Source: Dehalococcoidia bacterium
GTDB lineage: Bacteria > Chloroflexota > Dehalococcoidia > Lucifugimonadales > Australimonadaceae
Assembly: GCA_965247635.1 (NCBI GenBank)
Contig: CBDFHJ010000010.1
Span: forward strand, 773,918-837,917
Direction: 5' to 3'
Length of the DNA stretch: 64,000 nt
Both the position numbers and the translations under genes were made by a program. A model generated the notes under the pieces. The model saw only the letters and a program-made list of their open reading frames with translations, ran no database searches and had not been told where the DNA came from. The stretch's first letter is position 1. Each line of letters begins with the position of its first letter. Below, piece after piece: positions 9,600 to 59,058 of this stretch.

Positions 9600-9690
9600 C
9601 GATAAACAAGCGCTCTGTCCGTTCGTGCCGTCCGATGATGCTTCGCTCATCGAGACTCTCGGCGAAGCCGGAGAGCTTGTCGAAGCACAA
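9600..9690. repeat. nested hairpin repeat (CGTTCGTGCCG-[TCCGATGATGCTTCGCTCATCGAGACTCTCG]-..GCTTGTCGAAGCAC)
   Basis: The outer arms are related to 20447-20535 and 21203-21292. The inner 32-nt unit (9630-9661) is identical to the reverse complement of 57055-57086, inside hemA. Confidence 0.7.
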
Positions 9691-9899
9691 AACGAGGCCA
9701 TCGACACCACTAAGGCACTGGCTACAAGGTCATTTATGGTAGCAGGGCGCCGCGAATCCGGTCAAGCTGGCCGTTGTGCCGCACAGCGTCTCCCAACGGC
9801 CCTTACGCCCCGGGCGTGCTCTCGTGGAGCCCATCGTCATGATAGCCGTACGCACCAAGCAACCCTAGGGCCACGCCTTGGATGGACCATAGCTCTCCA

Positions 9900-11343: not shown

Positions 11344-13777
11344 GCCCGATGACTTTACCGAGCAAGCCCAGGAGGTACTGGGCGCCTCGCAGGAGATCGT
11401 TCGGCGGTACAAGCACATCCAGTGGGACGTGGAGCACATTCTGCTGGCGCTGCTAGAGGCCGAGCGGAGCGTGCCCGTGCAGGTGCTCTTGGAGCTCCAG
11501 GTAGACGTGACGCGCCTGACCAAAGAGGTGAGCCAGTTACTGGACACGGCCCCCAAGGCGACCTACGGCGGCGGCCAGATATACGCCACGCCCCGCGCCA
11601 TGAGCGTGGTCCAGAACGCCCGGGAGGAGAAGGACCGCCTCCACGACGACTTCATCGGCTCGGAGCATCTTCTCATCGCCATCATCTCCGACGAGGGAGG
11701 CGCCGCGCGCCTCCTCCAGCAGCACAGCGTGGACAAGGAGCGGGTCTACCAGGCTCTCCAGCAGGTCCGCGGCGGCCATCGGATCACGGACCAGCGGGCC
11801 GAGAGCCACTACCAGACCCTGGAGCGCTACACCATCGACCTGACTGACATGGCCCGCCAGGGGAAGCTGGACCCGGTCATCGGCCGGCAGCCGGAGATCC
11901 GGCGGGTCATGCAGACCCTGACCCGCCGCACCAAGAACAACCCGGTCATCATCGGCGGCGCCGGCGTGGGCAAGACCGCCGTTGTCGAGGGCCTGGCCCA
12001 GGCCATCGTTACCGGCGACGTGCCGGAGATACTTCGCGACCGCCGGGTCCTGGCGTTGGACATGGCCGGCATCGTGGCGGGCAGCAAGTTCCGTGGCGAG
12101 TTTGAGGAGCGGCTGAAGTCCGTCATTGACGAGGTGAAGCAAGCGCAGCGCGAGATGGTCCTGTTCATCGATGAGCTGCACACCGTGGTGGGCGCAGGTG
12201 CCGCCGAGGGTGGGATCGACGCCGCCAACATCATGAAACCGGCCCTGGCCAGGGGCGAGCTGCGGGTGATCGGCGCCACCACGCCCGACGAGTACCGTCG
12301 GCACATCGAGCGGGACAGCGCCCTGGAGCGTCGGTTTCAGCCCATCTGGCTGGAGGAGCCCTCGGTTGAGGAGACCATCGCGATCCTCAAGGGCCTGCGG
12401 CCACGCTACGAGGCGCACCACAAGGTCACCTACGACGACGCGGCCCTGGAGGCGGCCGCCAACCTCAGCCAGCGGTTCATCACCGGACGGCTGCTGCCGG
12501 ACAAGGCGGTGGACCTCATCGACGAGGCCGCGTCCAAACTGCGCCTGGACCTGGAGTCCCTGCCGCCGGCCGTGAAGGACCTGGAGCGCAAGGTGAAACG
12601 CTTGGAGGACGAGGAGGAGTCGGCCTCCCAGCGTGGAGACTTCGAACGCGCGGCCACCACGCGCACCGAACGCCTGCAGGCCGTGGAGGAGTTCGAGCGC
12701 CAGCGCAGCGCCTTTCTGGGCGAGGAGCAGACCAGCATGGTGGTCCGAGAAGATGACATCGCCGACCTCATCAGCAAGTGGACGGGCATCCCCGCCAGCC
12801 GGCTGCTGGAAGGAGAAGCCCAGAAGCTGCTGCACATGGAGGGAAAGCTGCACGAGCGCGTCATCGGCCAGGAGCTGGCCATCGCCTCCGTTTCCGACGC
12901 CATCCGCCGTTCCAGGGCGGGGCTGAAAGACCCCAAGCGGCCCATCGGCAGCTTCATGCTCCTGGGCCCCACCGGCGTGGGCAAGACCGAGCTGGCCCGG
13001 GCCCTGGCCGAGTACCTGTTCGACGACGAGGAGAACATGGTGCGCATCGACATGTCGGAGTACGGGGAGAAACACACCGTCTCCCGGCTCATCGGCGCGC
13101 CACCCGGCTACGTGGGGTACGAGGAGGCCGGCCAGCTCACCGAGGCGGTCCGCCGCCGGCCCTACCGCGTGGTGCTCTTCGATGAGATCGAGAAGGCCCA
13201 CCCCGACGTGTTCAACGTCCTCCTCCAGATCCTGGAGGACGGGCGTCTGACCGACGGCCACGGCCGGACGGTGGACTTCCGCAACACCGTGGTCATCATG
13301 ACCAGCAACCTGGGCACCCAGGAGTTCGGTAAGGAGGGCATCGGATTCCACGTCCCTGGACAGAAGGCCACCGACGAGCAGCGCCTGCGCGACTCGGTGA
13401 TGGAGGCCCTGAAGAACACCTTCCGGCCCGAGTTCCTGAACCGGGTGGACGAGTACATCGTATTCAAGCAGCTCACGGAGGAGGAGATCGCCCAGATCGT
13501 GGGCCTGATGATGCGGGACGTCCAGAAGCGGATGGACGAGCACGGCATCACCATCGAGCTGACGGAGACGGCCACCAAGTGGCTGGCCAAGGAGGGCTTC
13601 GACCCGGTGTTCGGCGCCAGGCCGCTGCGTCGGGCCGTGCAGCGCTACGTGGAGAACGGCCTGGCCAAACAGGTGCTGGCCGGCGAGTTCGCGGAGGGCG
13701 ACGTGGTGGAGGTGAGCGCCACCGACGACGGCCTGACGTTCAGCAAGAAGCAGATGGCGGAGGCCAAGACGGCGTAA
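11336..13777 (+). CDS. clpC: Clp/Hsp100 AAA+ chaperone, ClpC type
   Basis: Clp_N repeats, two Walker A motifs ([18 protein letters not shown]), a short UVR-like middle domain ([14 protein letters not shown]) and a GIGF loop. At 813 aa it fits ClpC rather than ClpB. Confidence 0.85.
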
Positions 13778-13778
13778 A

Positions 13779-13810
13779 GGGGGTCCGGGGGGCGTGGTGA
13801 ACGGCCCCCC
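13779..13810 (+). terminator. GC-rich hairpin repeat downstream of clpC (terminator-like, no T tract)
   Basis: GGGTCCGGGGGGCGTGGTGAACGGCCCCCC. This is the same element as 18635-18663 and 19944-19972. Confidence 0.4.
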
Positions 13811-13927
13811 AGCGTAAAGGACCAGCGACGCACTTGTCCTGGGCCGTAAGCAAGGGCCACTCTGAATTTCCTGGGGTGTGGTATCCTCCCGACTCGGTAT
13901 CCAACACGTCGACTGGGGGAATGAGAT

Positions 13928-14560
13928 ATGCATGACCCACTGGACGCAATCGACGCGATTCACAGCGCGTTCCGCCGGCACCTTCAGCAGATCGACGAGG
14001 AGGCTTATGGAATCGCAGCCAATGGTGGAAATCTGGATTCCACGATCGATAGGCTACGGCTGACCAGCGAGATGTTGCTTTACCACGCCGACGGCGAGGA
14101 GAAGTTCGTCTTCACCGCGATCGCCAAGGTTGCCCCGCATCTATCGGAACTATATACCCTGGATCACCGAGAACTGGACATGATGACGGAAGGGCTGCTC
14201 AAGATTGAGTCGGCACGGACCCCACTTGACGCGGCGCGGGCAACAGCAGTACTTCGCAATCACATGCGAATTCACCTGGACAAAGAGGACACCTACCTTC
14301 ACCCGCTACTCCGAGCCCACGCGAGTCCAGCCGAGCAGGCTCCCATCGTGGGCGGCATGGCTGGAGGTGTGCCACCAGAGAGGGTGCCGGCGTTCATCGA
14401 TTGGCTCTTTCCTATTATCGACGTCGTCGATAGCGTGAAGATGGCCGACGTCTGGAAACAGCTCATGCCAGAGCCTGTTTTTGCGAGCCTAGCGCCATTG
14501 GTGGAGAAGGCCACGGGCGACGATTGGGCAGAAATCGCTCGTCAAATCGGGTTAGCCTAA
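13928..14560 (+). CDS. hemerythrin-like (HHE cation-binding) domain protein
   Basis: DAIDAIHSAFRRHL..LLYHADGEEKFVF..LDHRELD..HLDKEDTYLHPLL shows the spacing of His/Glu/Asp ligands typical of hemerythrin-like domains. Confidence 0.6.
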   Translation: MHDPLDAIDAIHSAFRRHLQQIDEEAYGIAANGGNLDSTIDRLRLTSEMLLYHADGEEKFVFTAIAKVAPHLSELYTLDHRELDMMTEGLLKIESARTPLDAARATAVLRNHMRIHLDKEDTYLHPLLRAHASPAEQAPIVGGMAGGVPPERVPAFIDWLFPIIDVVDSVKMADVWKQLMPEPVFASLAPLVEKATGDDWAEIARQIGLA

Positions 14561-14831
14561 TATCCCACCAGAGACAACTCGAGCTTTCCGTTGCGACGCC
14601 AACCCCCCACTCACTTCTGCCCCGTGTTCACGGCAGAGGTCGACTCTACTCCATCTCCACCACCGTGCCCAACCAAACAAGCTAAGGCTTATTGCGGTGG
14701 CTATTAGATGCGTCGAACTCCACCTGCCTAAACCGTTGCAAGGCTTGCTCCCAAGGCGGATCGCGTTAGGGGTTGTAATCGGCCATTAAGAAAGTGAAGG
14801 GTTTTAGGAGCTCGGATTTGCGAAGAGGGGT

Positions 14832-16268
14832 TCAACGATACATCGTGTGCGCATCAGTCGAGAACGAATGCGGGCCTTCCCCGCACTGCGTTCGCGTAAT
14901 CCCTTCGATCGTTAGCGTCCGACCATCCTCAGACACCTCAATCAGTACCACTCCCGTGACCGTGTCATCCGATCCCCACACAGATGTCTGGCGGTGAAGT
15001 TCGGCGCAGTACACCTCACCCGGGACCACCGAGTCCCACTTACGATTGACAAGACCGTCTGCGACCGTCTCAACCCGATACTTACCCGCTGGGATATTGG
15101 GCAACTGGCTCCCGATATTCACCTTGTGCACCGAGTCATCTATCCAGTCTTGGTGAAGGTAAAGCCCTGAAGTATCCCCTTCTCCCAATGCGTCCCATAC
15201 AGTCCCATGTCCATGGTTAGGGATGCTCCCGTCGGCAAGCGGTGGTATTGGCAGCCACATCCCCATGGCAGTGCCCGGTACGTCTTGATTAAACGGGCCG
15301 CACCTACCGGACATCGATTCCAGGTATGACGTCCTATAGGGCTCCGGGAAGTACTCTAGCGTACAGACAGCGTTCCCACCCGAGTGAACCCAAGGGTTAA
15401 TGGCGTACCCGTAGCTGGGATGCTGTTGGAGCTCCGCGGCCGTGAGACCAAACAGTTGAAGACCAAAGTCAAATCCTGTTGTGTACCCGCTGGATTTCCA
15501 GATGGGGGTTCCTGCTTTAATTGGAGGATCGAGAAACATGTTCCATCGGCAGTGTCCAATTTCTGTCGTTACCAGCGCCTCTTCGGTTGTTGACGCTGGA
15601 CAGTCGGTCCACTCGACCGGAGCGGTCGTCCTGAAGTTATCGAGGACCTCTTCGATCGGTGTTCCAACGTGGCCCCAGAACAGACTGTAGCCTTCGCAGA
15701 TGATGGTATACACGCCCCACTCCTCGTACGTCCCCCCATCATGCGACTCCCTGACATCCCGCCCGAAGTTCATGAAGTAGATATCCGCGGGGGCATACAG
15801 TTGGACCTGCTCTGAGACAGGCACACCAGCCAGTGGGGCCTCCTCACTGAACTCGCGAGTACCCCGGTACACCACGTGGCCATGTGGGTATCCCCCCTTC
15901 TCCCAGAAGAAAGGGGTAGCATCTTCCGGGTCTACTACAGGGTGGGTGAATATGGAACCACCACAGCTTGGAAGCGGCTCACCATCTTCTCCAACCTTGG
16001 CCCGATTCCAGAACGGCTCAGGGTCGCTCGGCGTCGATGTGGCCGTCGACGTGGGGGTAGCGGTCGGCGACGGCGTGACGGTAGATGTAGGGGCAAAGGT
16101 CGGTGGGAGTGTTGGAGTAGGCGTTGCGGTGGGCAGCATGTTGGGGGTAGGAGTTACCGTCGGTGAAGGTGTCAGCGCAGGGGTCGGCGTCGGCGTAGGC
16201 TGCGCCTGGGTGCAGGCCGCCAAAAGTAGCGCGACCAGAGGAAGTAGCCAGGACAATGCTTTCCCCAT
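14832..16268 (-). CDS. secreted lipoprotein with a PT-rich linker, function unknown
   Basis: MGKALSWLLPLVALLLAAC lipobox, then roughly 70 aa of (T/P/S) repeats. GC is lower than in the neighbouring genes. Confidence 0.6.
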   Translation of the reverse strand: MGKALSWLLPLVALLLAACTQAQPTPTPTPALTPSPTVTPTPNMLPTATPTPTLPPTFAPTSTVTPSPTATPTSTATSTPSDPEPFWNRAKVGEDGEPLPSCGGSIFTHPVVDPEDATPFFWEKGGYPHGHVVYRGTREFSEEAPLAGVPVSEQVQLYAPADIYFMNFGRDVRESHDGGTYEEWGVYTIICEGYSLFWGHVGTPIEEVLDNFRTTAPVEWTDCPASTTEEALVTTEIGHCRWNMFLDPPIKAGTPIWKSSGYTTGFDFGLQLFGLTAAELQQHPSYGYAINPWVHSGGNAVCTLEYFPEPYRTSYLESMSGRCGPFNQDVPGTAMGMWLPIPPLADGSIPNHGHGTVWDALGEGDTSGLYLHQDWIDDSVHKVNIGSQLPNIPAGKYRVETVADGLVNRKWDSVVPGEVYCAELHRQTSVWGSDDTVTGVVLIEVSEDGRTLTIEGITRTQCGEGPHSFSTDAHTMYR

Positions 16269-16449
16269 GATCCTTACAGTACCGCTTGGGGCGCGGATGG
16301 CAAGACCTGAAACACCCAGGGTTTGCTGCACGGAGTGACCTCAGGTGCCTTGTACCGTGGCCTCAGGTACCCAGGCGCGCGTGAAGTAAATTCAACACAA
16401 GCGTATCATCGGTCGGACAAGCAACTAGCCGCCATCTCGATGGACGCCC

Positions 16450-17379: not shown

Positions 17380-17690
17380 GTCCGCTCCCCCTGAGTTTGT
17401 CGAAGGGCTGGGCGGGTGCCGAAAGGAGCTTTGGAGCGAGGTTCTTCGCCCCCCGATAAATCGGAGGACTCAGAATGACAGCGTCTCGTTTGTCACCCTG
17501 AGACCCGATTCGTCGGGACGAAGGGTCTCTCACTCCTCCTTACCGAGAGATTCTTCGTCGCCCCGCTCCTCAGAATGACAGGGACAGATATTGTGTCGCC
17601 AGCTAAAGGGCACTCACCCGTTCGTCCTGAGCCTGTCGAAGGGCGAGCGGGTTCCGATTCGGCCCCCCGTGGTATCCTCGTTGCGTTACG
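17380..17690. repeat. intergenic stack of hairpin repeats
   Basis: GAGTTTGTCGAAGGGCTGGGCGGG. GAGATTCTTCG..TCAGAATGACAGGGACAGATA..AGGGCACTCACCCGTTCGTCCTGAGCCTGTCGAAGGGCGAGCGGGTTCC (17540-17655) recurs at 21135-21292. Confidence 0.75.
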
Positions 17691-18439: not shown

Positions 18440-18970
18440 ATGGTGCGTTTCGGTATCGGCTACGATGCCCACGCTCTGGTCGCGGGGCGCCCGCTGATGC
18501 TGGCCGGGGTACACGTCCCCTTTGGCAGCGGCCTGGAGGGCCATAGCGACGGTGACGTGGCCTGCCACGCCATCGCCGATGCCTTGCTGGGCGCTGCGGC
18601 GCTAGGGGACCTGGGCACGCATTTCAAGCCGGCTGGGGTCCGGGGGCGCGGTGAGCGGCCCCCGGTGAATGCGGACACCTCCACCGTACCGCCAGGCGTC
18701 TCGAGCCTGTCGCTGCTGGAGAGGACCGGAGAGATGGTGCGGGAGCGCGGCTGGCAGGTGGAAAACGTGGATGCTACAATTGTCGCCCAGCGTCCGCGCC
18801 TTGCAGAGCACGTACTCGCCATGCGTCAGGCGGTGGCCCAGGCCCTGGGCATCACCGACGAACGCGTAAGCGTCAAGGCCACCACCACCGACGGTCTGGG
18901 CTTCACCGGCACCGGCGAGGGCATTGCCGCCTACGCCGTCGCCTCCCTGACCGCCCGCTCTCCGGAATAA
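18440..18970 (+). CDS. ispF: 2-C-methyl-D-erythritol 2,4-cyclodiphosphate synthase carrying an internal repeat-derived insertion
   Basis: FGIGYDAHAL, GLEGHSDGDV, and VKATTTDGLGFTGTGEGIAA. The segment between HF and LL is about 15 aa longer than in canonical IspF and contains the hairpin repeat at 18635-18663. Confidence 0.9.
   Translation: MVRFGIGYDAHALVAGRPLMLAGVHVPFGSGLEGHSDGDVACHAIADALLGAAALGDLGTHFKPAGVRGRGERPPVNADTSTVPPGVSSLSLLERTGEMVRERGWQVENVDATIVAQRPRLAEHVLAMRQAVAQALGITDERVSVKATTTDGLGFTGTGEGIAAYAVASLTARSPE
18635..18663. repeat. 29-nt GC hairpin repeat, in frame inside ispF
   Basis: GGGGTCCGGGGGCGCGGTGAGCGGCCCCC. It is identical to 19944-19972 apart from one base and related to 13779-13810. 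Confidence 0.8.
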
Positions 18971-18975
18971 AGCCC

Positions 18976-20442
18976 ATGAAGATCTACGACACGCTCACCG
19001 GCCAGAAGCGGGAGTTCACCCCTGTGTCGGACGTGGTACGCATGTACGTCTGCGGCGTCACGCCCTACGCGCCGGCCCACGTGGGCCACGCCATGTGCGC
19101 CATCGTCTTCGACATGGTCCGCCGGTACCTGGAGTACCGTGGGTATCGGGTGCGCCACGTGCAGAACTTCACCGATATCGATGACAAGCTCATCGACCGG
19201 GCGCAGTTGGAGAGAACCACCGTTACCGCCCTGGCCGAGCGACACATCGACGACTATTTCCGGGATATGGACGCCCTCAACGTCCGGCGGGCCCACGACT
19301 ACCCCCGCGCCACCCAGGAGATTCCCCGGATGGTGGAGGTCATCGCGACGCTCATAGACAAGGGCTCCGCGTACCACGCTGACGGCGACGTCTACTTTCG
19401 CGTGACGCGGGACCCCAGCTACGGGAAGCTGAGCCACCGTACTTTGGACAGTATGCGGGCCATCGCCCGGGTCGAGGCCGGCGAGTACAAGGAGCATCCC
19501 ATGGACTTCGCCCTCTGGAAGGCGGCCAAGCCGGGCGAGCCCCAGTGGGACAGCCCGTGGGGGCCTGGCAGGCCGGGGTGGCACGTGGAGTGCAGCGCCA
19601 TGGCGCTGGGCTACCTGGGCGAGCCGGTGGACATCCACGGCGGCGGTCAGGACCTGGTCTTTCCTCATCACGAAAACGAGATCGCCCAGAGCGAGGCGTA
19701 CACAGGCCATCAACCCTTCGTCCAGTTCTGGCTCCACAACGGGCTCATGCATATGGACCAGGAGAAGATGAGCAAGTCGTTGGGCAACATGGTGACCGTT
19801 GAGGATGCGCTGGAGCACGTCTCCGCCGACACGTTGCGCATGGCTGTTCTTGGCTCCCACTACCGCAGCCCCAGCGGCTACTCCGACGACCTGCTCGACG
19901 CCGCCGGGCGAGGCATGGCCCGTCTCCGTCAGGCTGCGGTCTTGGGGTCTGGGGGCGCGGTGAGCGGCCCCCAGCAGATTCAAGGGTCTGAGGGCGCCAG
20001 TGACAAGTCGGTCCGAAGGACTCCGGACTCCTTCGGAGGACAGTCGCCCGCCGAGGCGTTGGACCCGTCGCCGCACCGGGATAGGTTCGTGGCGGCCATG
20101 GACGACGATTTCAACACTCCCCAGGCGTTAGCGGCGCTCTTCGACCTGGCCCGCGATATCAACCGCGCCGCCGAGGGCGGTCAGGCGGTGGCGGAAGCCC
20201 AACAGACGTTGCAAGAGCTGGGCCGCGAGGTCCTGGGCTTTACCTTTGCGGACGACCAACCCCAGGTTCCAGCCGAGCTGGGGGCACAAGTCCAGGAGCT
20301 GGTGGAGCGCCGCACCCGGCTCCGGACCGAGCGCGACTTCGCGGGCGCCGACGCTGTACGCGACGAGTTGGCCCAGCTGAACGTGACGTTGACCGACACG
20401 CCCACCGGGACGACCTGGCGTTGGGGTGGGCCCGCCAGCTAA
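18976..20442 (+). CDS. cysS: cysteinyl-tRNA synthetase carrying internal repeat-derived insertions
   Basis: HVGHA and KMSKS motifs, and AMDDDFNTP. The linker before AMDDDFNTP is about 27 aa longer than in E. coli CysS and contains two dispersed repeats. Confidence 0.9.
   Translation: MKIYDTLTGQKREFTPVSDVVRMYVCGVTPYAPAHVGHAMCAIVFDMVRRYLEYRGYRVRHVQNFTDIDDKLIDRAQLERTTVTALAERHIDDYFRDMDALNVRRAHDYPRATQEIPRMVEVIATLIDKGSAYHADGDVYFRVTRDPSYGKLSHRTLDSMRAIARVEAGEYKEHPMDFALWKAAKPGEPQWDSPWGPGRPGWHVECSAMALGYLGEPVDIHGGGQDLVFPHHENEIAQSEAYTGHQPFVQFWLHNGLMHMDQEKMSKSLGNMVTVEDALEHVSADTLRMAVLGSHYRSPSGYSDDLLDAAGRGMARLRQAAVLGSGGAVSGPQQIQGSEGASDKSVRRTPDSFGGQSPAEALDPSPHRDRFVAAMDDDFNTPQALAALFDLARDINRAAEGGQAVAEAQQTLQELGREVLGFTFADDQPQVPAELGAQVQELVERRTRLRTERDFAGADAVRDELAQLNVTLTDTPTGTTWRWGGPAS
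19944..19972. repeat. 29-nt GC hairpin repeat, in frame inside cysS
   Basis: GGGGTCTGGGGGCGCGGTGAGCGGCCCCC. Confidence 0.8.
20006..20039. repeat. 34-nt hairpin repeat, in frame inside cysS
   Basis: AGTCGGTCCGAAGGACTCCGGACTCCTTCGGAGG (9-bp stem TCCGAAGGA/TCCTTCGGA). It is identical to the intergenic copy at 33322-33355. Confidence 0.85.
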
Positions 20443-20446
20443 AGGA

Positions 20447-20535
20447 TACTCGCCCGTTCGTCCTGTCCGATGATGCTATGATCGTCGGACTCTCGACGAG
20501 TCGGAGAGCCTGTCGAAGGACGAGCGGGTGCACTC
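20447..20535 (+). repeat. about 89-nt nested hairpin repeat (long form)
   Basis: ACTCGCCCGTTCGTCCTG-[TCCGATGATGCTATGATCGTCGGACTCTCGACGAGTCGGAG]-AGCCTGTCGAAGGACGAGCGGGTG. It is a direct repeat of 21203-21292. Confidence 0.8.
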
Positions 20536-20541
20536 AACACC

Positions 20542-21174
20542 ATGAATAGCCCCAACCTTTCTCGCATCGTCGTAGTCGGCACCACCGGCTCCGGCAAGAC
20601 CACCGTGGCCAGGCGGCTTGCCCAGCTGCTCGGCGTACCCCATATCGAGCTGGACGCGCTGAATTGGCAACCCAACTGGGTCGGGCTCGCCGAACACGAC
20701 CTGCAGGAGTTTCGACGCCGCGTTGACACAGCGGTGGATGCCTCCAACGATTGGGTAACCGACGGCAACTATAGGGTGGTCCGCGATATCGTCTGGGGCC
20801 ACGCCGCGAACGTGGTCTGGCTGGACTATCCGCTGTGGCTCATCATGTGGCGTCTGTTTCGACGCACTGTTCGGCGAGCCTGGACCCGAGAGGAACTGTG
20901 GAACGGAAACCGCGAATCGTTCCGCAAAGGGTTCCTCAGCCGCGACTCCCTGTTCCTGTGGGCGCTTCAGAGCCACTCGCGGAGACGTCGCGAGTATCCT
21001 GTCCTCTTGGCCCAGCCTGAGCACGCCCACCTCCGGGTGTTCCGCCACCGCTGGCCACGTGAGACCGAGCGCTGGCTGCGGCGGCTTGCGGCCAGCGTTG
21101 GTGATAAGCCTGCTGCTCAACCAGGGCCTGGCGAAGGGTCTTTGGAACGAGATTCTTCGCTGCATTCAGAATGA
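20542..21174 (+). CDS. small P-loop NTPase (adenylate-kinase / FlaR-like)
   Basis: Walker A is VVGTTGSGKTTVARRL, plus VVWLDYPLWLIMWRLFRRTVRR. The last ~15 codons run into repeat DNA. Confidence 0.55.
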   Translation: MNSPNLSRIVVVGTTGSGKTTVARRLAQLLGVPHIELDALNWQPNWVGLAEHDLQEFRRRVDTAVDASNDWVTDGNYRVVRDIVWGHAANVVWLDYPLWLIMWRLFRRTVRRAWTREELWNGNRESFRKGFLSRDSLFLWALQSHSRRRREYPVLLAQPEHAHLRVFRHRWPRETERWLRRLAASVGDKPAAQPGPGEGSLERDSSLHSE

Positions 21175-21292
21175 CAGGGACAGATATCGTATCGTCGGCT
21201 AGAGGGCACTCACCCGTTCGTCCTGTCCGATGATGCTATGCTCGTCGGACTCTCGACGAGTCGGAGAGCCTGTCGAAGGGCGAGCGGGTTCC
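21135..21292 (+). repeat. composite repeat (GAGATTCTTCG..TCAGAATGACAGGGACAGATA unit plus the long nested hairpin)
   Basis: Matches 17540-17655 (short hairpin form) and 20447-20535 (long form). Confidence 0.8.
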
Positions 21293-23573: not shown

Positions 23574-24554
23574 ATGGAGTACCGGAAGCTGGGCAACTCG
23601 GACCTGGAAGTGTCGGTGACCGGCCTGGGCGGCAACACCTTTGGCCCGCCGCGTCTGGACGAGGCTATGTCCATCAAGTGCATCCATAGGGCGCTGGACC
23701 TGGGGATCAACTTCGTGGACACGTCCATCGGCTATGGCCAAGGCCAGAGTGAGCTGTACCTGGCCAAGGCGCTCAAGGGCCGCCAGAGCGAGATGCTCAT
23801 CGGCACCAAGTTCAACCTTCGCGAGGTGGGCGAGGAGAGCGTCGGCGCCACGATCGCCAAGCAATGCGACGAGAGCCTCCGCAAGCTCGAGACGGACCAC
23901 AGCGACCTGTACCAGCACGCCGGCAACGCCGACGTATCCATCGAAGAGCTCCTCCGGGCGCTGCAAGACCTGGTCCAGGCGGGCAAGGTGCGGTACGTCG
24001 GCACGGTGAACTACTCCTCCTGGCGGCAGACCCGCACTATCCACGCGGCCAGTGGCCAGGACCTGCCGGAGCTCGTCTCCTCGCAGCACAACTACAACAT
24101 GGTGCGGCGGCACGTGGAACTGGAAGTGCTGCCCATGTGCGAAGCCTACAACGTGGGCTTCCTGCCCAACGCCACGCTGGCGGGCGGCTACCTGACTGAC
24201 AAGTACACGAAGGGCCAGCCGGCCCCGGAGGGTACCCGTGGCGCCGCCGGCAGCCCCATGGTGACGCGGACCCGCACCGCCCAAAACGAGGAGACCCAGG
24301 ACACGCTGAAGGGCTGGGCCCACGACCGCGGCCACACCCTAGGCGAGCTGGCACTGGCGCGGCTGGCGGCCTGCCCCCAGGTCTCGTCCATCCTGACCGG
24401 CGTGAGCACGCCCCAGCAGGTTGAGGAGAACGTGAAGGAGAGTGAGTGGAAGCTGACGGCGGAGGAGAAGGAGGAGGTGGACACGATCGCCGACTGGGCC
24501 GGCAGCTTCGAGCGCATCGAAGGGTCCATCCGCCAGCCCGGAGGGGGCGGCTAG
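23574..24554 (+). CDS. aldo/keto reductase
   Basis: MEYRKLGNSDLEVSVTGLGGNTFG, FVDTSIGYGQGQSE, and KVRYVGTVNYS. GAAGGAGG lies upstream of the start. Confidence 0.85.
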   Translation: MEYRKLGNSDLEVSVTGLGGNTFGPPRLDEAMSIKCIHRALDLGINFVDTSIGYGQGQSELYLAKALKGRQSEMLIGTKFNLREVGEESVGATIAKQCDESLRKLETDHSDLYQHAGNADVSIEELLRALQDLVQAGKVRYVGTVNYSSWRQTRTIHAASGQDLPELVSSQHNYNMVRRHVELEVLPMCEAYNVGFLPNATLAGGYLTDKYTKGQPAPEGTRGAAGSPMVTRTRTAQNEETQDTLKGWAHDRGHTLGELALARLAACPQVSSILTGVSTPQQVEENVKESEWKLTAEEKEEVDTIADWAGSFERIEGSIRQPGGGG

Positions 24555-24794
24555 CGCGGCCCCTCCCTTAGCTCTCGGCTCAGGTCGTCGGTGTCCCGCT
24601 GGAGGTCGGCCAGCGCCTCCGGGTCATCATGGAGCGGCACCAGCGTACCGAGCGCCGTGAGCAGGCCGTCGCGGTACACGTTCAGGGCCCCGCCGCCAGG
24701 AGCTGGGCTTCTCCCAGGACGAAGCGCGCCAGGAGCACCCGCTGCGGCGTCTCCCACGAGGCTAGGTTTGCCTCTACGGAGTTGCCCCCACCCG
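24406..24794 (+). repeat. left copy of a 0.39-kb direct repeat
   Basis: About 90 percent identical to 27314-27701. It covers the functional AKR 3' end plus a dead copy of the 3' end of the gene at 27459-28331. Confidence 0.9.
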
Positions 24795-27313: not shown

Positions 27314-27701
27314 GCACGTCTCAGCAGGTTGAGGAGAACGTGAAGGGGGGTGAGTGGAAGCTGACGGCGGAGGAGAAGGAGGAGGTGGACACGATAGCCG
27401 ACTGGGCTGGCAGTTTCGAGCGTATCGAAGGGTCCATCCGCCAGCCCGAAGGGGCCCGCTAGCGCGGTCCTTCCCTTAGCATTCGGCTCAGGTCGTCGGT
27501 GTCCCGCTGGAGGTCGGCCAGCGCCTGCGGGTCCTCTTGGAGCGGCACCAGCGTACCGAGCGCCGTAAGCAGGCTGTCGCGGGGCACGTTCAGAGCCGCT
27601 GCCAGGAGCTGGGCTTCTCCCAGGACGAAGCGCGCCAGGAGCACGCGCTGCGGTGTCTCCCACGAGGCTAGGCTTACCTCCACGGAGTTGCCTCCCACCC
27701 G
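27314..27701 (+). repeat. right copy of the 0.39-kb direct repeat
   Basis: Contains a dead copy of the AKR 3' end (..QQVEENVKGGEWKLTAEEKEEVDTIADWAGSFERIEGSIRQP..) plus the functional 3' end of the gene at 27459-28331. Confidence 0.9.
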
Positions 27702-33289: not shown

Positions 33290-33480
33290 GGATTCGGAAT
33301 GACGGGCTGGCGGCCTCGACTAGTCGGTCCGAAGGACTCCGGACTCCTTCGGAGGGCACCTGCTTGCGAGGTCCCCATGGTTCGACAGGCCTGTCCTGAG
33401 CGAAGTCGAAGGGCTCACCATGAACGGCCATAACTCCGCTCATCCTGGGCTTGTCGAAGGATCAAGCCCTCACCGGAGGA
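33290..33480. repeat. stack of hairpin repeats
   Basis: The 34-nt unit at 33322-33355 is identical to 20006-20039. Also present are GGCCTGTCCTGAGCGAAGTCGAAGGGCTC and CTGGGCTTGTCGAAGGATCAAGCCC hairpins. Confidence 0.75.
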
Positions 33481-33675
33481 ACGAAGTCCGCGTGAGTGCC
33501 ATAAATGGAAAACGCCCTCCTCGTCGAGGAAGGCGTCTCCTAGAGACAACGGTCTTAGACCCTCAGGTACCTCCAACCGCTGAACCTCTCCTGGCCTGGA
33601 GATTATCACGGGTCGTCTGAGAGTTCAACATACCAGAGGCTGGCTACGGCAACACCCCCAGTGGGGACTCTTGGG

Positions 33676-35043
33676 GAGGTTACGTCAATGGGTGTGTAAA
33701 CGACATCAGGCGGCGACCTTCTCAGCCGTTGATTCAATGGCGATTCCATCCGCATACTGTGCACCGAGATAGACGTCTTCGATCAACTCAGGGGCCTTCA
33801 GACGCCTGAAGCGCTGTTCGGCGACCATCAACATTTTCCAGATCACCACTATCGCCCGATCGACCCTCTTGCAGCGCTTGGCGGCATCGGTCCGAAGCCT
33901 GAGGGCCGCGAAGGGTGATTCTACCGGGTTCGTCGTGCGAAGGTGCCCCCAGTGCTCCTTTGGGAAGTCATAGAAGGTGACCATGCGGTCCCAGTCCCGC
34001 TCCAAGGCCTCTGAGGCCGCCTCGTAGGAATGGTCGCCGCACCACCTGGTGAACACCGTCCTGAGCCGCTCAGCCTCTGTCCGAGTCGGCGCGTAGGGGA
34101 TAGTACGCAGCATGAGCTTGGCCTGGTCCTGTTGTCGCTTTGGAAGCTTGGCGAGCACGTTTACGATCTTGTGGTTCCAGCAGCGTTGCTCTGCCGCCTG
34201 CGGATAGACGTTGCGCAGAGCTCCCCAGATGCCCAGGTGTCCGTCCCCAACCACCAGCCTCGAGCACTCCAGCCCGCGGCGCCTCATGTCCCTGAGCACA
34301 TCGGACCAGTTCTCTGTGGACTCCCTGTATCCGGGAACAGCGCTCACCACCACCTTGCTCCCGTCGCTCAGGGCCGCCACCACCACCAGTACTGCCGCCT
34401 TCTCCTTCTCAAGACCAGCCTTGACGTAGACTCCATCCACCCACATGTAGACCACTTCCAGGTCATCTAGGGGCCGGCTGCGCCATTGGGCAAGCTCATC
34501 GTTCCACTTGGACTTCAACCGGGCCACCGTGCTCGCCGATACCGGTGCGTCCTCTCCCAGCAGCCCCCGCAAAGCCAGATCGAAGTCGCCTTCGGATAGA
34601 CCGTGCAGGTACAGCTCGGGGATCAACTCAGCAACCTTCCTGGTCCTGTTGACGAACAGCGGCAGCAGCCGGCTCTCGAACTGCTCCTCGGTATCGCGGA
34701 CTCGCGGCCGCCTCAGCTGTATCGTTCCCGAACTCAGCGTAAGCCTCCGGGCTCTGCCGTATCCGTTCCGATAGCCGGTATCGTTGTCCGAGTCGGATCT
34801 GAGCGCCGACTTCGCCCTTCCCAGAAACGCCGTCACCTCCTCCTCCAGCAACTCCTGGATCAGCCTCTGGACCTGGCTTCGCACCCAATCCTCCAACTGC
34901 TCCCACTCCGGCCTTGACTCCGACCTACTCTCAGTGCTTTCCTTCCTCATGGGCGGTCTATCTCCTCTCTTGGGCCTCGAGCCCGTGTTGTTCAGAGAGA
35001 GGGTACACCGCCTGACTGTTTACACACTTTTTGAAGATACCTC
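33676..35043 (-). mobile_element. IS256-family insertion sequence, copy 1 (1368 bp)
   Basis: The ends are GAGGTTACGTCAATGGGTGTGTAAACGAC.. and ..GTCTGTTTACACACTTTTTGAAGATACCTC, which form imperfect terminal IRs sharing GTGTGTAAAC..CAGGCGG. It is near-identical to 35297-36664. Confidence 0.9.
33706..34950 (-). CDS. IS256-family (Mutator-type) transposase
   Basis: 414 aa. Carries VDGVYVK, GDGHLGIWGAL..VYP.A..QRCWNHK and the NPVESPF signature of Transposase_mut. Confidence 0.9.
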   Translation of the reverse strand: MRKESTESRSESRPEWEQLEDWVRSQVQRLIQELLEEEVTAFLGRAKSALRSDSDNDTGYRNGYGRARRLTLSSGTIQLRRPRVRDTEEQFESRLLPLFVNRTRKVAELIPELYLHGLSEGDFDLALRGLLGEDAPVSASTVARLKSKWNDELAQWRSRPLDDLEVVYMWVDGVYVKAGLEKEKAAVLVVVAALSDGSKVVVSAVPGYRESTENWSDVLRDMRRRGLECSRLVVGDGHLGIWGALRNVYPQAAEQRCWNHKIVNVLAKLPKRQQDQAKLMLRTIPYAPTRTEAERLRTVFTRWCGDHSYEAASEALERDWDRMVTFYDFPKEHWGHLRTTNPVESPFAALRLRTDAAKRCKRVDRAIVVIWKMLMVAEQRFRRLKAPELIEDVYLGAQYADGIAIESTAEKVAA

Positions 35044-35044
35044 C

Positions 35045-35149: not shown

Positions 35150-35296
35150 CACGCCCCCTAGGCGGCCCCCCGCAGAGTCCAGGACGTGGCCCTGGACCCA
35201 TATGCGGTGTCCCTATCGACAGAGTCAGCGAAGCGCTCGTAAGCCCTCGCCGGTTCGTCATTGGTGCAAGTTCCTTAGCAGGGCGCGGCCCAAGAG

Positions 35297-36664
35297 GAGG
35301 TATCTTCAAAAAGTGTGTAAACAGTCAGGCGGTGTACCCTCTCTCTGAACAACACGGGCTCGAGGCCCAAGAGAGGAGATAGACCGCCCATGAGGAAGGA
35401 AAGCACTGAGAGTAGGTCGGAGTCAAGGCCGGAGTGGGAGCAGTTGGAGGATTGGGTGCGAAGCCAGGTCCAGAGGCTGATCCAGGAGTTGCCGGAGGAG
35501 GAGGTGACGGCGTTTCTGGGAAGGGCGAAGTCGGCGCTCAGATCCGACTCGGACAACGATACCGGCTATCGGAACGGATACGGCAGAGCCCGGAGGCTTA
35601 CGCTGAGTTCGGGAACGATACAGCTGAGGCGGCCGCGAGTCCGCGATACCGAGGAGCGGTTCGAGAGCCGGCTGCTGCCGCTGTTCGTCAACAGGACCAG
35701 GAAGGTTGCTGAGTTGATCCCCGAGCTGTACCTGCACGGTCTATCCGAAGGCGACTTCGATCTGGCTTTGCGGGGGCTGCTGGGAGAGGACGCACCGGTA
35801 TCGGCGAGCACGGTGGCCCGGTTGAAGTCCAAGTGGAACGATGAGCTTGCCCAATGGCGCAGCCGGCCCCTAGATGACCTGGAAGTGGTCTACATGTGGG
35901 TGGATGGAGTCTACGTCAAGGCTGGTCTTGAGAAGGAGAAGGCGGCAGTACTGGTGGTGGTGGCGGCCCTGAGCGACGGGAGCAAGGTGGTGGTGAGCGC
36001 TGTTCCCGGATACAGGGAGTCCACAGAGAACTGGTCCGATGTGCTCAGGGACATGAGGCGCCGCGGGCTGGAGTGCCCGAGGCTGGTGGTTGGGGACGGA
36101 CACCTGGGCATCTGGGGAGCTCTGCGCAACGTCTATCCGCAGGCGGCAGAGCAACGCTGCTGGAACCACAAGATCGTAAACGTGCTCGCCAAGCTTCCAA
36201 AGCGACAACAGGACCAGGCCAAGCTCATGCTGCGTACTATCCCCTACGCGCCGACTCGGACAGAGGCTGAGCGGCTCAGGACGGTGTTCACCAGGTGGTG
36301 CGGCGACCATTCCTACGAGGCGGCCTCAGAGGCCTTGGAGCGGGACTGGGACCGCATGGTCACCTTCTATGACTTCCCAAAGGAGCACTGGGGGCACCTT
36401 CGCACGACGAACCCGGTAGAATCACCCTTCGCGGCCCTCAGGCTTCGGACCGATGCCGCCAAGCGCTGCAAGAGGGTCGATCGGGCGATAGTGGTGATCT
36501 GGAAAATGTTGATGGTCGCCGAACAGCGCTTCAGGCGTCTGAAGGCCCCTGAGTTGATCGAAGACGTCTATCTCGGTGCACAGTATGCGGATGGAATCGC
36601 CATTGAATCAACGGCTGAGAAGGTCGCCGCCTGATGTCGTTTACACACCCATTGACGTAACCTC
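35297..36664 (+). mobile_element. IS256-family insertion sequence, copy 2 (1368 bp)
   Basis: Same termini as copy 1. The transposases differ at only 3 residues (L/P, Q/R, S/P). Confidence 0.9.
35390..36634 (+). CDS. IS256-family transposase
   Basis: See copy 1. Confidence 0.9.
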   Translation: MRKESTESRSESRPEWEQLEDWVRSQVQRLIQELPEEEVTAFLGRAKSALRSDSDNDTGYRNGYGRARRLTLSSGTIQLRRPRVRDTEERFESRLLPLFVNRTRKVAELIPELYLHGLSEGDFDLALRGLLGEDAPVSASTVARLKSKWNDELAQWRSRPLDDLEVVYMWVDGVYVKAGLEKEKAAVLVVVAALSDGSKVVVSAVPGYRESTENWSDVLRDMRRRGLECPRLVVGDGHLGIWGALRNVYPQAAEQRCWNHKIVNVLAKLPKRQQDQAKLMLRTIPYAPTRTEAERLRTVFTRWCGDHSYEAASEALERDWDRMVTFYDFPKEHWGHLRTTNPVESPFAALRLRTDAAKRCKRVDRAIVVIWKMLMVAEQRFRRLKAPELIEDVYLGAQYADGIAIESTAEKVAA

Positions 36665-36665
36665 C

Positions 36666-43512: not shown

Positions 43513-44538
43513 GTGCCTACCGAAACGAAGCGACGCATCATAGCGGAACTGGCGGACCAGATCGCCCGCGCGACGCTGGCTATCGCCACTGACTTCAGCG
43601 GGCTGGGCGTTAACGAACTGACGGAGCTGCGCCGCCGGCTTCGCGCCCGCTCGGCGGAGTACCGCGTGGTGAAGAACCGGCTGGTAGTGCTCGCCGCGAA
43701 GGAGGCGGGCAAGGACGGCTTCGTCGAGCTCGTGGAGGGCAGTACCGGCATTGTCTTCGGCTACGGGGAGGCGGTTGACGCGGCGAAGGCGCTGGATGAA
43801 TTCATCAGGGCCACCCGGTCGCAGTTGGTGGTGCGCAACGGCATCCTGGACGGCAGTCCCCTCAATAGGGGCCAAATCACTGCCCTGGCCAGCTTGCCGC
43901 CCAAGGAGGAGCTGCTGGCCAGGTTGCTGGGCCAACTCCAGGCGCCTGTAGCCAGATTGGTCAACGTGCTCATCGGGCCGCTTCAGGGCCTTGCGATCGT
44001 GCTGCAACGACGGGCGGAGCAGCTGGACGGGCCTAAGGCCTCCGAGACAGACGAACCTGAGGCCCCCGAGACGGACGAACCTGAGGCCTCCGAGACGGAC
44101 GAACCTAAGGCCTCCGAGACAGACGAACCTAAGGCCTCCGAGACAGACGAACCTGAGGCCCCCGAGACGGACGAACCTGAGGCCCCCGAGACGGACGAAC
44201 CTGAGGCCTCCGAGACAGACGAACCTGAGGCCTCCGAGACAGACGAACCTGAGGCCCCCGAGACGGACGAACCCGAGGCCTCCAAGACAGACGAACCTGA
44301 GGCCCCCGAGACGGACGAACCTGAGGCCTCCGAGACAGACGAACCTGAGGCCTCCGAGACAGACGAACCTGAGGCCCCCGAGACGGACGAACCCGAGGCC
44401 TCCAAGACAGACGAACCTGAGGCCCCCGAGACGGACGAACCTGAGGCCTCCGAGACGGACGAACCTGAGGCCTCCAAGACAGACGAACCTGAGGCTCCTG
44501 AGGAACCTGAAGACCCCGAGAAGGACGGCACAAAATAG
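43513..44538 (+). CDS. rplJ: 50S ribosomal protein L10 with a ~160-aa acidic tandem-repeat C-terminal extension
   Basis: The N-terminal ~170 aa are canonical L10 (..YRVVKNRL..GSTGIVFGY.., L12-binding helix LLARLLGQLQAPVARLVNVL). These are followed by 19 copies of E(T)DEPEA(S/P). Confidence 0.9.
   Translation: MPTETKRRIIAELADQIARATLAIATDFSGLGVNELTELRRRLRARSAEYRVVKNRLVVLAAKEAGKDGFVELVEGSTGIVFGYGEAVDAAKALDEFIRATRSQLVVRNGILDGSPLNRGQITALASLPPKEELLARLLGQLQAPVARLVNVLIGPLQGLAIVLQRRAEQLDGPKASETDEPEAPETDEPEASETDEPKASETDEPKASETDEPEAPETDEPEAPETDEPEASETDEPEASETDEPEAPETDEPEASKTDEPEAPETDEPEASETDEPEASETDEPEAPETDEPEASKTDEPEAPETDEPEASETDEPEASKTDEPEAPEEPEDPEKDGTK
44035..44500 (+). repeat. 24-bp coding tandem repeat (about 19 units) with a 120-bp higher-order period
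   Basis: Unit GCC[TC]CCGAGAC[AG]GACGAACCTGAG. The 5-unit block 44161-44280 is almost exactly repeated at 44281-44400. Confidence 0.95.
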
Positions 44539-56920: not shown

Positions 56921-58342
56921 TCATCCTCCCGTGGCCTTGCGCTTGGGGTTTGGTGCATTCCGACGTCCCGGCGAGGGCTCAGTATCGTCTGGCACCTCGG
57001 CGTCTCGGGACCCCGCGGAAAGGTCCTCCGATACACCCGCCATAGGCGGGCTATCGAGAGTCTCGATGAGCGAAGCATCATCGGACAGGGCTGCGCCCTG
57101 GTCCAGGCCGAACAGCTCCCTGGCTACTTGGACGAATGCCTCTTCATTTCGCTCGTTTAGGGAGCGGGTGGGGTTGTGAAGGACCTTCTTGACCAGGGCC
57201 TTGGACATGGCCTCGATGCGCCGTCGGCCCTCGGCGGATAGCTCGGGCAGCCTGGCCAAGACACGCTCCACCTCCGCGGCGCGCACGCTCTCCGCGCCGT
57301 GGCGCATGGCGGCGATGGTCGGCCGCGCCTCCAGGGAGTCCCACCAGGCCTGAAAACGGGCAACTTCCTCTTGGACGATGACCTCCGCCTTGGTGGCCTC
57401 CGCTTCGCGCTCGCGGCGATTCGTCTCGGCTACCAGCTCCAGGTCGTACATGGTGTAGAGCTCAACGCCCGCGAGTCCGGCGACGGCGGGGTCAACGTCC
57501 CGGGGAACGGCCACGTCAAAGAGGAAGAGCGGCCGCTCCAGCCTTTGGGCCCTGGCCTCGGTCACCATCTCCTCGGTGACCATGAAGTCGGGTGCGCCCG
57601 TGGAGCTCACCCCGATGTCGGCCTCCCGGATAAGCGATGGCAGCTCCTCCAGCGGTGCGACCTGCGCCTCCAGCTGCTCGGCCAGGTCCTGCGCATGGGC
57701 CATGGTGCGGTTGGCAATCACGAGAGAGGAGACTCCGGCGTCCCGCAGCGCTCGGGCCGCCAGTCGGCCTGCGTCGCCCACGCCTATCACGAGGGCATGC
57801 TTGTGCTGGAGGTCGCCGAGAGCTCGTCGTGCCATCTCCACGCACGCCCGGCTTACGGAAAGGGCGTTGCGCCCGATGGCCGTTTCGGTCCGGACGCGCT
57901 TGCCCACCCGCAGCGCCTCGTGGAACATCTTGGTGAGCACGCCGCCAGCGGTGCCCTGCTTCGTGGCCGCGCTGTAAGCCTCGCGCACCTGGCCTAGGAC
58001 TTCCGACTCGCCGATGATGAGGGAGTCGAGACTGGAAGCTACCCGGTACAGGTGGGTTACGGCCCCTCCGTGCTCGTAGGTGTAGAGGTGTGGCTCCAGG
58101 TCGGCCATCTCCACTCCGAACTGGCGCTCGATGAAGCTGCTCAGCGACGCCTGGCTACCGTCCGACTCATTGGCAACCGTGTACACCTCCGTCCGGTTGC
58201 ACGTGGCAAGGAGAACGCCGCGGCCCAGCACCTGCCTGAGCGTGTCCAACGCTTGGGGCAGCTGCGCCCGGCTTAGGCTCAGCGTCTCCCGGGTCGCCAG
58301 GGGCGCTGTCCGATGGCTCAGTCCCGTAACGGTGATGTGCAC
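56921..58342 (-). CDS. hemA: glutamyl-tRNA reductase with a repeat-containing C-terminal extension
   Basis: (M)HITVTGLSHRTAPLATRE, LLATCNRTEVY, and VIGVGDAGRLAARAL. The GTG start at 58342 is chosen because the longer track ORF overlaps the sirC-like gene. Confidence 0.9.
   Translation of the reverse strand: MHITVTGLSHRTAPLATRETLSLSRAQLPQALDTLRQVLGRGVLLATCNRTEVYTVANESDGSQASLSSFIERQFGVEMADLEPHLYTYEHGGAVTHLYRVASSLDSLIIGESEVLGQVREAYSAATKQGTAGGVLTKMFHEALRVGKRVRTETAIGRNALSVSRACVEMARRALGDLQHKHALVIGVGDAGRLAARALRDAGVSSLVIANRTMAHAQDLAEQLEAQVAPLEELPSLIREADIGVSSTGAPDFMVTEEMVTEARAQRLERPLFLFDVAVPRDVDPAVAGLAGVELYTMYDLELVAETNRREREAEATKAEVIVQEEVARFQAWWDSLEARPTIAAMRHGAESVRAAEVERVLARLPELSAEGRRRIEAMSKALVKKVLHNPTRSLNERNEEAFVQVARELFGLDQGAALSDDASLIETLDSPPMAGVSEDLSAGSRDAEVPDDTEPSPGRRNAPNPKRKATGG
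57055..57086. repeat. 32-nt dispersed repeat unit inside the hemA 3' end
   Basis: The reverse complement, GTCCGATGATGCTTCGCTCATCGAGACTCTCG, is identical to 9630-9661. It is translated as ..SDDASLIETL... Confidence 0.85.
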
Positions 58343-58371
58343 CTGTACCTCGCGGGGGGTATCAACCCCAA

Positions 58372-59058
58372 TTAATCGGCCCTGGTTTCCGCCGTTTGCA
58401 GCAGCGCGGACAGGAGCCGCTCCTTGGCCTCTTGCGAACGTCCACGCTCCACCAGCTCCAGCACCTCCGCGTCCATGGCCTCTTGCCAGGCCTTGGGGCT
58501 TGCGGTTCGCGCCTCCGCCTTCAGCTCGCCGCGGACCTCGGAGAGAACGCCGGCGGCATCCGCCCACGCCAGGCACCGGCAGGTGGTCTCGCCCGGCTCG
58601 GCGCAGTCGATGGGGCGAGAGCCTTCCATCAGCTCCCGCAGGCGTCTGGCAAGCGCGGGACTGGTGCCTGAGGTGGAGATGGCCACACTCACCGGGCCCC
58701 GCTCAACGATGGCGGGAGCGATGAAGGTGCACAGGCTTGGTACGTCGACGATGTTCAGGAGCACTCTTTCCGCCGTCGCCTCCTCCCGGACCTGGCGGTT
58801 TACCGCGCTATCGTCCGTGGCGGCGATGGCCAGGAACGCGTCCGAGAGGTCTCCGGGCTGATACGGGCGTTGCAGCCACACGAGCTGGGCCTCGCCAGCC
58901 CACTGTCGCAGGGCCTTGGTCGCTGACGGGCTTACCAGCGTGACAGCGGCGCCCGAGTCCAGCAGCTGCCGGACCTTCCGTTCGGCCACGCCCCCCGCGC
59001 CGATGACCACGCAACGCCGGCCTTGAATGTCCAGGTAAACGGGATAGTAGCGGCCCAT
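58372..59058 (-). CDS. sirC: precorrin-2 dehydrogenase / sirohydrochlorin ferrochelatase (SirC / CysG N-terminal type)
   Basis: YPVYLDIQGRRCVVIGAGGVAERKVRQLLDSGAAVTLVSP. Confidence 0.8.
   Translation of the reverse strand: MGRYYPVYLDIQGRRCVVIGAGGVAERKVRQLLDSGAAVTLVSPSATKALRQWAGEAQLVWLQRPYQPGDLSDAFLAIAATDDSAVNRQVREEATAERVLLNIVDVPSLCTFIAPAIVERGPVSVAISTSGTSPALARRLRELMEGSRPIDCAEPGETTCRCLAWADAAGVLSEVRGELKAEARTASPKAWQEAMDAEVLELVERGRSQEAKERLLSALLQTAETRAD

Follow-up and report, generated by a model that had tools for sequence, protein, structure and literature searches.

In-frame colonisation of essential genes by palindromic repeats, by which selfish DNA seeds protein loops, is a textbook oddity of Rickettsia. 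Cyanobacterial small dispersed repeats (SDR) are reportedly hairpins of 21-27 nt that insert cleanly, are found nested and have no known transposase. Here we describe a 64,000-nt stretch of DNA from a Dehalococcoidia bacterium of the Chloroflexota (contig CBDFHJ010000010.1; "the window" throughout), in which short GC-rich hairpin repeats of three families, termed units 1, 2 and 3, lie between genes and, in frame, inside ispF, cysS and the end of hemA. We consider it reasonably probable that the additions to ispF and cysS are insertions of small repeat units that are tolerated in protein loops.

The closest described phenomenon is that of intragenic repetitive extragenic palindromes (REPs), which are 20-40-nt stem-loops tagged with GTAG or CGTC that lie within open reading frames (ORFs) of known proteins in several phyla, tRNA synthetases included (Di Nocera et al. 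2013, PMC3733652). Intragenic REPs add a dozen to 30 residues (20-30 when they occur as dimers or groups), which are presumed to lie in linkers or loops; REPs are mostly intergenic with a minority in ORFs, and GTAG REPs occur in Chloroflexi (PMC3733652). The phenomenon itself is already known, from Rickettsia and other bacteria, and these reports speak against the original prediction, made from the letters of the window, that palindromic repeats within ORFs are rare outside Rickettsia. Rickettsia palindromic elements (RPEs), as PMC10969869 summarises them from Ogata et al. (2000, Science 290:347), are palindromic, AT-rich, about 100-150 bp in length and found only in Rickettsia, where they are inserted in frame in unrelated essential genes whose ORFs remain open. 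According to the same review, they are presumed to occupy the surfaces of proteins with function kept, and each family has a conserved peptide, a fixed frame and tens of copies per genome. MITEs (miniature transposable elements with inverted repeats; ERIC, BOX and QMITE1) are non-autonomous, measure 70 to more than 300 bp, carry terminal inverted repeats with regular target-site duplications, and form occasional in-frame fusions with host ORFs (PMC10969869).

The genes ispD, ispF and cysS are encoded on the + strand of the window between 17.7 and 20.4 kb, in a region with a background GC content of 65%. The two host genes and the copies of units 1 and 2 are listed below.

18440-18970, + strand: ispF, 176 aa, ORF open.
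18629-18670, + strand: in-frame unit-1 insertion in ispF, 42 nt, core 18634-18663, encoding PAGVRGRGERPPVN.
18976-20442, + strand: cysS, 488 aa, ORF open.
19945-19983, + strand: unit-1 insertion in cysS, 39 nt relative to relative L002, core 19943-19972.
19999-20049, + strand: unit-2 insertion in cysS, 51 nt encoding 17 aa (SDKSVRRTPDSFGGQSP), 34-nt core 20006-20039.
33322-33355, + strand: intergenic unit-2 copy, 34/34 identical to the cysS copy, in the 585-nt spacer from gatB to an IS256-family transposase gene.
13780-13811, + strand: diverged unit-1 copy directly 3' of the clpC stop codon, 24/30 ungapped with one extra G, 46 bits.

Contigs of relatives were fetched via protein searches and compared with the window by synteny and nucleotide alignment; for cysS, the window, L001, L002 and L088 were also compared codon by codon. 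L001 (ENA) shares ~95% nucleotide identity with the window across ~17-20 kb in perfect synteny; L089, from a second ENA sample, is 98.7% identical to L001 and ~95% identical to the window. L002 (ENA) and L003 (JGI), which are equivalent to each other, share ~89-92% nucleotide identity with the window, and L088 represents a lineage with ~74% CysS identity (samples yielding L001, L089 and L002: ERZ25072076, ERZ25766727, ERZ27247711 and JGI 3300031801). The CysS proteins P0003, from the same distant lineage as L088, and P0004 and P0006, equally distant, were also used. The best GTDB matches to CysS were 54% identical (Dehalococcoidia and Thermomicrobium metagenome-assembled genomes, MAGs). Chance expectations for repeat matches were obtained from dinucleotide shuffles of the window, and a covariance model of unit 1 was run over the whole 64 kb with filters off.

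In the ~17-20 kb that the window has in common with L001 and L089, it exceeds them by at least 3 nt at three places only, all of them hairpin repeats: unit 3 at 9631, the ispF insert and unit 2 in cysS. The insert lengths of 42, 63, 39, 42 and 51 nt are all multiples of three. Once the relatives are aligned, empty sites are found at 90-95% nucleotide identity, which bears out the prediction that the extra segments are insertions, in ORFs that, as also predicted, remain open.

Unit 1 is a 30-nt GC-rich hairpin that folds as an 8-bp stem with one bulge and a 5-nt GGTGA loop. Its 29-nt string GGGGTCYGGGGGCGCGGTGAGCGGCCCCC occurs exactly at 18635-18663 in ispF and at 19944-19972 in cysS, as the original prediction had it, with no match expected by shuffling. 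With the covariance model the three copies in the window reach 46-55 bits, and no other site scores above 15 bits. Unit 1 has no stop codon in five of its six frames, and the two intragenic copies are read in different frames (AGVRGRGERPP in IspF, LGSGGAVSGPQ in CysS); their similarity is thus at the nucleotide level only and the peptides are unrelated. The third copy, after clpC, is bracketed by an 8-nt direct repeat, GCGTAAAG (13772-13779 and 13812-13819), carries a compensatory change at the top of the stem (a T..A pair in place of C..G) and was not found in L001 or L002. This copy had been called terminator-like; it is real, though diverged, and we rejected a classical intrinsic terminator because it has no T-run. 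A connection to the adjacent 2.7-kb low-GC island was likewise rejected, as the island encodes no transposase.

The ispF insert lies between HFK and ADTS, the latter degenerated from an ancestral ADDP; GVRGRGERPPVN is a predicted peptide of this IspF. In L001, L089 and L088 the site is empty and the protein has 162 aa (CAC TTC AAG/GCC GAT GAC, HFK/ADDP, with the slash at the insertion point), so that the excess over insertion-free orthologues is 14 aa (42 nt); L002 and L003 carry the 42 nt of the window plus 21 nt inside the hairpin (63 nt in all), which lengthen the stem (CACCG...CGGTG). Against every solved IspF, the window protein shows a single gap-free excess of 15 residues after the GD(L/I)G-x-HF motif. 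The predicted excess of about 15 aa for IspF therefore agrees with the solved proteins and is one residue above the figure measured against orthologues. Among the 120 best IspF homologues, only the window and L002 proteins carry the insert and 118 are without it; 2 others of the 120 have a 7-aa tandem duplication in the same loop, and PDDPAMPEG is a tandem duplication at this site in other lineages. Directly 3' of the insert, the clade-wide ADDPxVP has decayed to ADTSTVP in the window and to VDTLEVP in L002, while the Zn ligands D9, H11 and H43 are intact and invariant. An AlphaFold2 model places the insert in a predicted coil (residues 58-82, pLDDT <50) between helices 40-61 and 89-102, a position which we take to correspond to the flexible substrate-covering loop of E. 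coli IspF (residues ~61-71).

The distribution of the ispF insert, which is common to the window and L002 and absent from L001 and L089, is not tree-like. Over ispD-ispF-cysS as a whole, groupings of the window with L001 outnumber those with L002 about fourfold; in the stretch around the insert (18580-18678), 6 of the 7 informative sites place the window with L002, a pairing seen at about 1 in 4 sites elsewhere. A short tract of recombination therefore carries the insert polymorphism, and either an insert-free ispF allele was probably pasted into the L001 lineage or an insert-bearing allele into the lineage of the window.

In cysS, proteins of 458 aa (L002, ...RSGGA/ADALD...), 474 aa (L001 and L089, unit 1 only) and 488 aa (window, units 1 and 2) form a length series. 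The excess over insertion-free orthologues is 30 aa, from 39 nt of unit 1 and 51 nt of unit 2, and not the ~27 aa first proposed; SVRRTPDSFGG is a predicted peptide of this CysS, and where E. coli CysRS has residues 326-338 the window protein has residues 325-367. The boundaries of unit 1 are ambiguous because a 14-nt direct repeat, the imperfect GGGTCTG(G/A)GGGCGC, flanks it (19945-19958 and 19984-19997). L002 keeps only GGTCTGGGGGCGCC, the 5' part of unit 1, and since the 14-nt repeats bracket the rest, the state of L002 is most simply a deletion between repeats. At the same site, L088 carries a diverged remnant of unit 1 (13-nt exact match, 22.6 bits) and P0003, which contains the peptide GSGGAASGPQ, encodes GSGGAASGPQEV together with a second partial copy; P0004 and P0006 have nothing there. 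The remnant and the P0003 peptide suggest that unit 1 has long resided in the cysS linker or has entered it repeatedly, and place it earlier than the original prediction implied.

Unit 2 in cysS is seen in the window only and is absent from L001, L089 and L002. Its 34-nt core, AGTCGGTCCGAAGGACTCCGGACTCCTTCGGAGG, was predicted to be identical in cysS and at the intergenic site, and the two are indeed exact copies with none expected by shuffling. It folds as a 9-bp stem (TCCGAAGGA/TCCTTCGGA) with an 8-nt loop, all six of its frames are open, and its insertion shows at most 2 nt of junction microhomology and no target duplication. The AlphaFold model of CysS is poor overall (pLDDT 52) and served solely to place a coil between two helices: residues 323-364 are low-confidence coil between helix 304-322 and a well-modelled C-terminal domain that starts with helix 365-376. 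In E. coli CysRS the corresponding place is presumably where the stem-contact fold meets the helical bundle. In another Chloroflexota lineage (P0039, P0041, P0063, P0078 and P0100), the CysS linker has grown at this very site by tandem (A)LDPQPARER(Q) repeats, in proteins of up to 516 aa, a lengthening that came about independently.

The third family supplies an exact insertion, at 9631. Its copies in the window are as follows.

9631-9673, + strand: unit 3, a 43-nt hairpin repeat (TCCGATGATGCT...CCGGAG) preceded by C(T/C)G and set into the loop of a different palindromic element.
20466-20506 and 21226-21266, + strand: unit-3 copies nested in ~97-nt palindromic elements, at the same loop position.
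57051-57086, - strand: partial unit-3 copy in the C-terminal tail of hemA, in frame, encoding LSDDASLIETLD, just past the GlutR dimerisation domain.

The site at 9631 is exactly empty in L001 and L089 (GTGCTG/AGCTTG), both of which carry the host palindromic element. All four copies are preceded by C(T/C)G, and unit 3 contains CGTC before a 5-bp stem. The two ~97-nt elements flank the gene after cysS, the first of them just 3' of the cysS stop codon; L001 is without both, including any between cysS and the next gene. The gene so flanked, a small P-loop kinase-like gene (20542-21174, + strand), is ~82% identical to its L001 counterpart, compared with ~95% for the flanking genes, and is absent from L002 and L088. 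The gene hemA (glutamyl-tRNA reductase; 56921-58702, - strand) ends in a C-terminal tail of ~55 aa that begins with the partial unit 3. A further palindromic intergenic family has the core CCGTTCGTCCTG-AGCCTGTCGAAGG and reads PFVLSLSKG in one frame; several of its copies are absent from or different in L001. It lies at these positions.

17570-17657, 20433-20529 and 21193-21289; also 1446, 9600-9700, 17382, 33436 and 44555: intergenic palindromic family with core CCGTTCGTCCTG.

Compared with REPs, units 1 and 2 are likewise short, imperfect, GC-rich stem-loops in the 20-40-nt range, but neither carries a GTAG or CGTC tag on either strand; unit 3 is the only unit with CGTC, next to its short stem. 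Unlike REPs, the units show no head-to-head dimers (REPINs). In the 64-kb window 2-4 copies per family are visible, and no RAYT gene was present among the window ORFs scanned. The predicted resemblance to RPEs holds for behaviour, in that unrelated housekeeping ORFs are occupied in frame and kept open (ispF, cysS with two units, and the hemA tail), and fails for membership. RPEs are Rickettsia-specific, AT-rich and 100-150 bp long, whereas the units here measure 30-50 nt at ~80% GC and few copies, with inserts of 39-51 nt (63 nt in L002) around cores of 30 and 34 nt; moreover, the use of unit 1 in two frames departs from the fixed frame and conserved peptide of an RPE family. The concatenated open-frame peptides of units 1 and 2 found nothing at E<=10 among 5.8 billion proteins, the queries being too short for the method. 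The units are not RPEs, and the resemblance is one of behaviour. Like MITEs, they are repeats of a non-autonomous type that occasionally lie in frame with host ORFs; unlike MITEs, they do not consistently have terminal inverted repeats or a target-site duplication of fixed length. The likeness to SDR lies in unit 3, a clean 43-nt insertion in conserved sequence that is nested in other repeats, as REP- and SDR-type repeats typically are; the phylum differs, the sequences are unrelated, and in-frame occupation of essential enzymes is not an SDR hallmark. In the literature, no report of elements such as these was found for SAR202 or Chloroflexota genomes.

The favoured reading can be cast as a sequence of steps. 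Non-coding, GC-rich hairpin repeats of ~30-50 nt, REP- or RPE-like in behaviour, would have been copied to new sites in the recent history of the lineage, and a few copies would have landed inside essential genes. The survivors would be those that add bases in multiples of three, bring no stop codon into the reading frame and lie in a flexible linker; translation would turn them into additional residues of a loop, and the enzyme would be little affected. After insertion, homologous recombination over short tracts and deletions between short direct repeats would spread alleles or remove them. The original prediction left open whether surface loops tolerate or attract the repeats. The models do suggest low-confidence coils between helices as the sites; of the 9 copies that the three hairpin families have in the window, 4 are in ORFs, where a crude coding fraction of ~0.8 would lead one to expect more (P ~0.02 for so few), which fits tolerance after selection and not targeting. 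In other lineages, moreover, these loops admit plain tandem duplications too. On this reading loops tolerate rather than attract the repeats, and nothing suggests that genes are targeted.

For the copying step we tentatively favour hairpin-dependent transposition of single-stranded DNA by a transposase that would act in trans from elsewhere in the genome, in the style of REP/RAYT or IS200/IS605, though we hold this with less assurance than the insertions themselves. Transposition of this kind would need no terminal inverted repeats, would leave no regular target duplication and would insert beside a short motif. It is preferred because, apart from the hairpin itself, the units lack terminal inverted repeats, because they show no regular target duplication, because the 5' neighbour of unit 3 is fixed and because several unrelated families were recently gained.

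Several observations weigh against a mobile family. By the covariance model, the window holds just 3 copies of unit 1, all within 6.2 kb and on one strand, and in ~70 kb of close-relative DNA none was found beyond the orthologous sites. The three copies have only the 30-nt core in common, the flanks within the inserted DNA being unrelated and the boundaries not sharp, and hairpin stability is not significantly above that of shuffled GC-rich sequence (z -0.2 to -1.9). Flanking direct repeats are inconsistent: 8 nt at clpC, an imperfect 14 nt at cysS unit 1, and none at ispF, unit 2 or unit 3. A degenerate 29-30-nt unit 1 was unmatched in 185,579 GTDB genomes (the source genome not being among them); a 22-nt unit-1 core had 4 single matches in JGI metagenomes, in unrelated contexts and at about the number expected by chance; and viral contigs, plasmids and phages yielded no wider family. 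Among the 16 window ORFs scanned with Pfam there was no Y1/HUH transposase, only the IS256 type. The mobile family of the original prediction is thus supported by the insertions and by the gains relative to close relatives, and is left in doubt by the clustering of unit 1 and the public scans. A tie of the units to the IS256 pair near intergenic unit 2 was rejected, as the ends of those elements resemble no unit.

The best of the other explanations is local copying without a transposase, which we regard as possible and rather unlikely. Unit 1 would be native to, or long resident in, the cysS linker, and short patches of it would have reached neighbouring sites (ispF at a distance of 1.3 kb, the 3' end of clpC at 6.2 kb) through template switching during replication, ectopic gene conversion or the capture of a DNA fragment in repair, with the hairpin promoting stalling and strand switching. 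The proximity of the three same-strand copies fits (probability ~0.03 for three random points in 64 kb), as does the standing of cysS as the oldest home of unit 1, given the L088 remnant and the P0003 peptide. The different extra bases around the core are as for captured fragments and not for transposition that cuts at ends, the variable direct repeats of 8 and 14 nt resemble products of microhomology or slippage, and the public scans returned no wider family. The other two units speak for mobilisation instead: the unit-2 copies are 13.3 kb apart, and those of unit 3 span 9.6-57 kb on both strands, each of the four standing at the same point behind C(T/C)G, which suggests site recognition. That three unrelated hairpin families were recently gained relative to a 95% relative is also more easily explained by an active mobilising function.

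A role at the RNA level is much less probable. The hairpins would be selected in the ispD-ispF-cysS transcript as processing or stability sites, or for interdomain ribosome pausing, with the peptide as a by-product. One base-pair change is compensatory, the cysS copy persists across lineages, and one copy immediately follows a stop codon, a setting in which REPs frequently act on the 3' ends of mRNAs (PMC3733652). Against this, the inserts are polymorphic among very close relatives and hence dispensable, hairpins inside ORFs would be unfolded by translating ribosomes, no Rfam family matches at the gathering threshold or at E<=1, and the folding energies are, as noted, no better than those of shuffles.

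We think it slightly less probable still that the extra IspF and CysS segments are ancestral, functionally selected loops, with the intergenic look-alikes derived from them or coincidental. A unit-1-like segment does occupy the same cysS site in two lineages sharing ~74% CysS identity, and in the distant cysS the hairpin is better kept than the surrounding linker. Yet the ispF insert is missing from nearly all of the best homologues and from the ~95% relatives, unit 2 occurs in cysS of the window alone, and P0004, P0006 and L002 are without the cysS insert; the intragenic unit-1 copies encode unrelated peptides in their different frames, and the conserved DDP beside the ispF insert has decayed instead of being preserved. 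By these comparisons ancestral loops are excluded for ispF and for unit 2, and for unit 1 in cysS they are tenable only in part.

An assembly or binning chimera, with reads mis-joined at short repeats, is hardly credible even for an uncultured-type genome in which short repeats can confuse assemblers, since filled and empty states recur in independent assemblies (the ispF insert, with its own 21-nt variant, in L002 and L003 from different sources, and cysS unit 1 in L001 and L089 from different samples), colinear gene sequence continues on either side of the inserts with the reading frame kept, and a 975-kb contig is on record that encodes the identical IspF of 176 aa.

Other features of the window lie outside these families. 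The IS256-family elements at 33675-35044 and 35296-36665 are 99.8% identical, inverted and 250 nt apart, and encode a 414-aa Mutator-type transposase. The low-GC (57%) island at 13820-16440, between clpC and a hydrolase gene, is missing from L001, L089 and L002; its products are a protein with a hemerythrin domain and a secreted protein of 499 aa, rich in Thr and Pro, without a Pfam match. A ~380-nt direct repeat (24414-24794 and 27322-27701, 92% identical) brackets a 2.5-kb segment with a low-GC3 495-aa ORF that has a weak NHL-repeat match only. Between rplA and rplL, rplJ (ribosomal protein L10; 43513-44538, + strand) encodes 341 aa compared with the usual ~170, owing its C-terminal tail to ~20 tandem 8-aa acidic repeats, TDEPEA[S/P]E (array 44032-44495, period 24 nt, 91% matches).

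To return to small repeat units inserted in tolerant loops, the outcome is the same as in Rickettsia, but the units are much smaller and the Chloroflexota lineage concerned is free-living and GC-rich. In MAGs of this kind cysS, ispF, hemA and other marker genes can bear lineage-specific indels derived from repeats, which calls for caution in annotation and phylogenomics. Relatives at 90-95% identity offer both filled and empty alleles, and with these one can trace stepwise how inserts are gained, how they decay (DDP to DTS in IspF), how they are partly deleted and how recombination transfers them. The boldest version of this reading, which we judge improbable, is an active mobilisation system for ultra-small (30-50 nt), untagged hairpins, not described before, that inserts them next to a motif (C(T/C)G for unit 3) and leaves them removable. 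If it were true, natural populations would vary in the loop insertions of their essential enzymes, among them the one in the loop that covers the substrate of IspF, with decay of DDP, and the lineage would offer a natural system in which to watch, at the level of populations and in bacteria other than obligate intracellular ones, how selfish DNA gives rise to protein loops.

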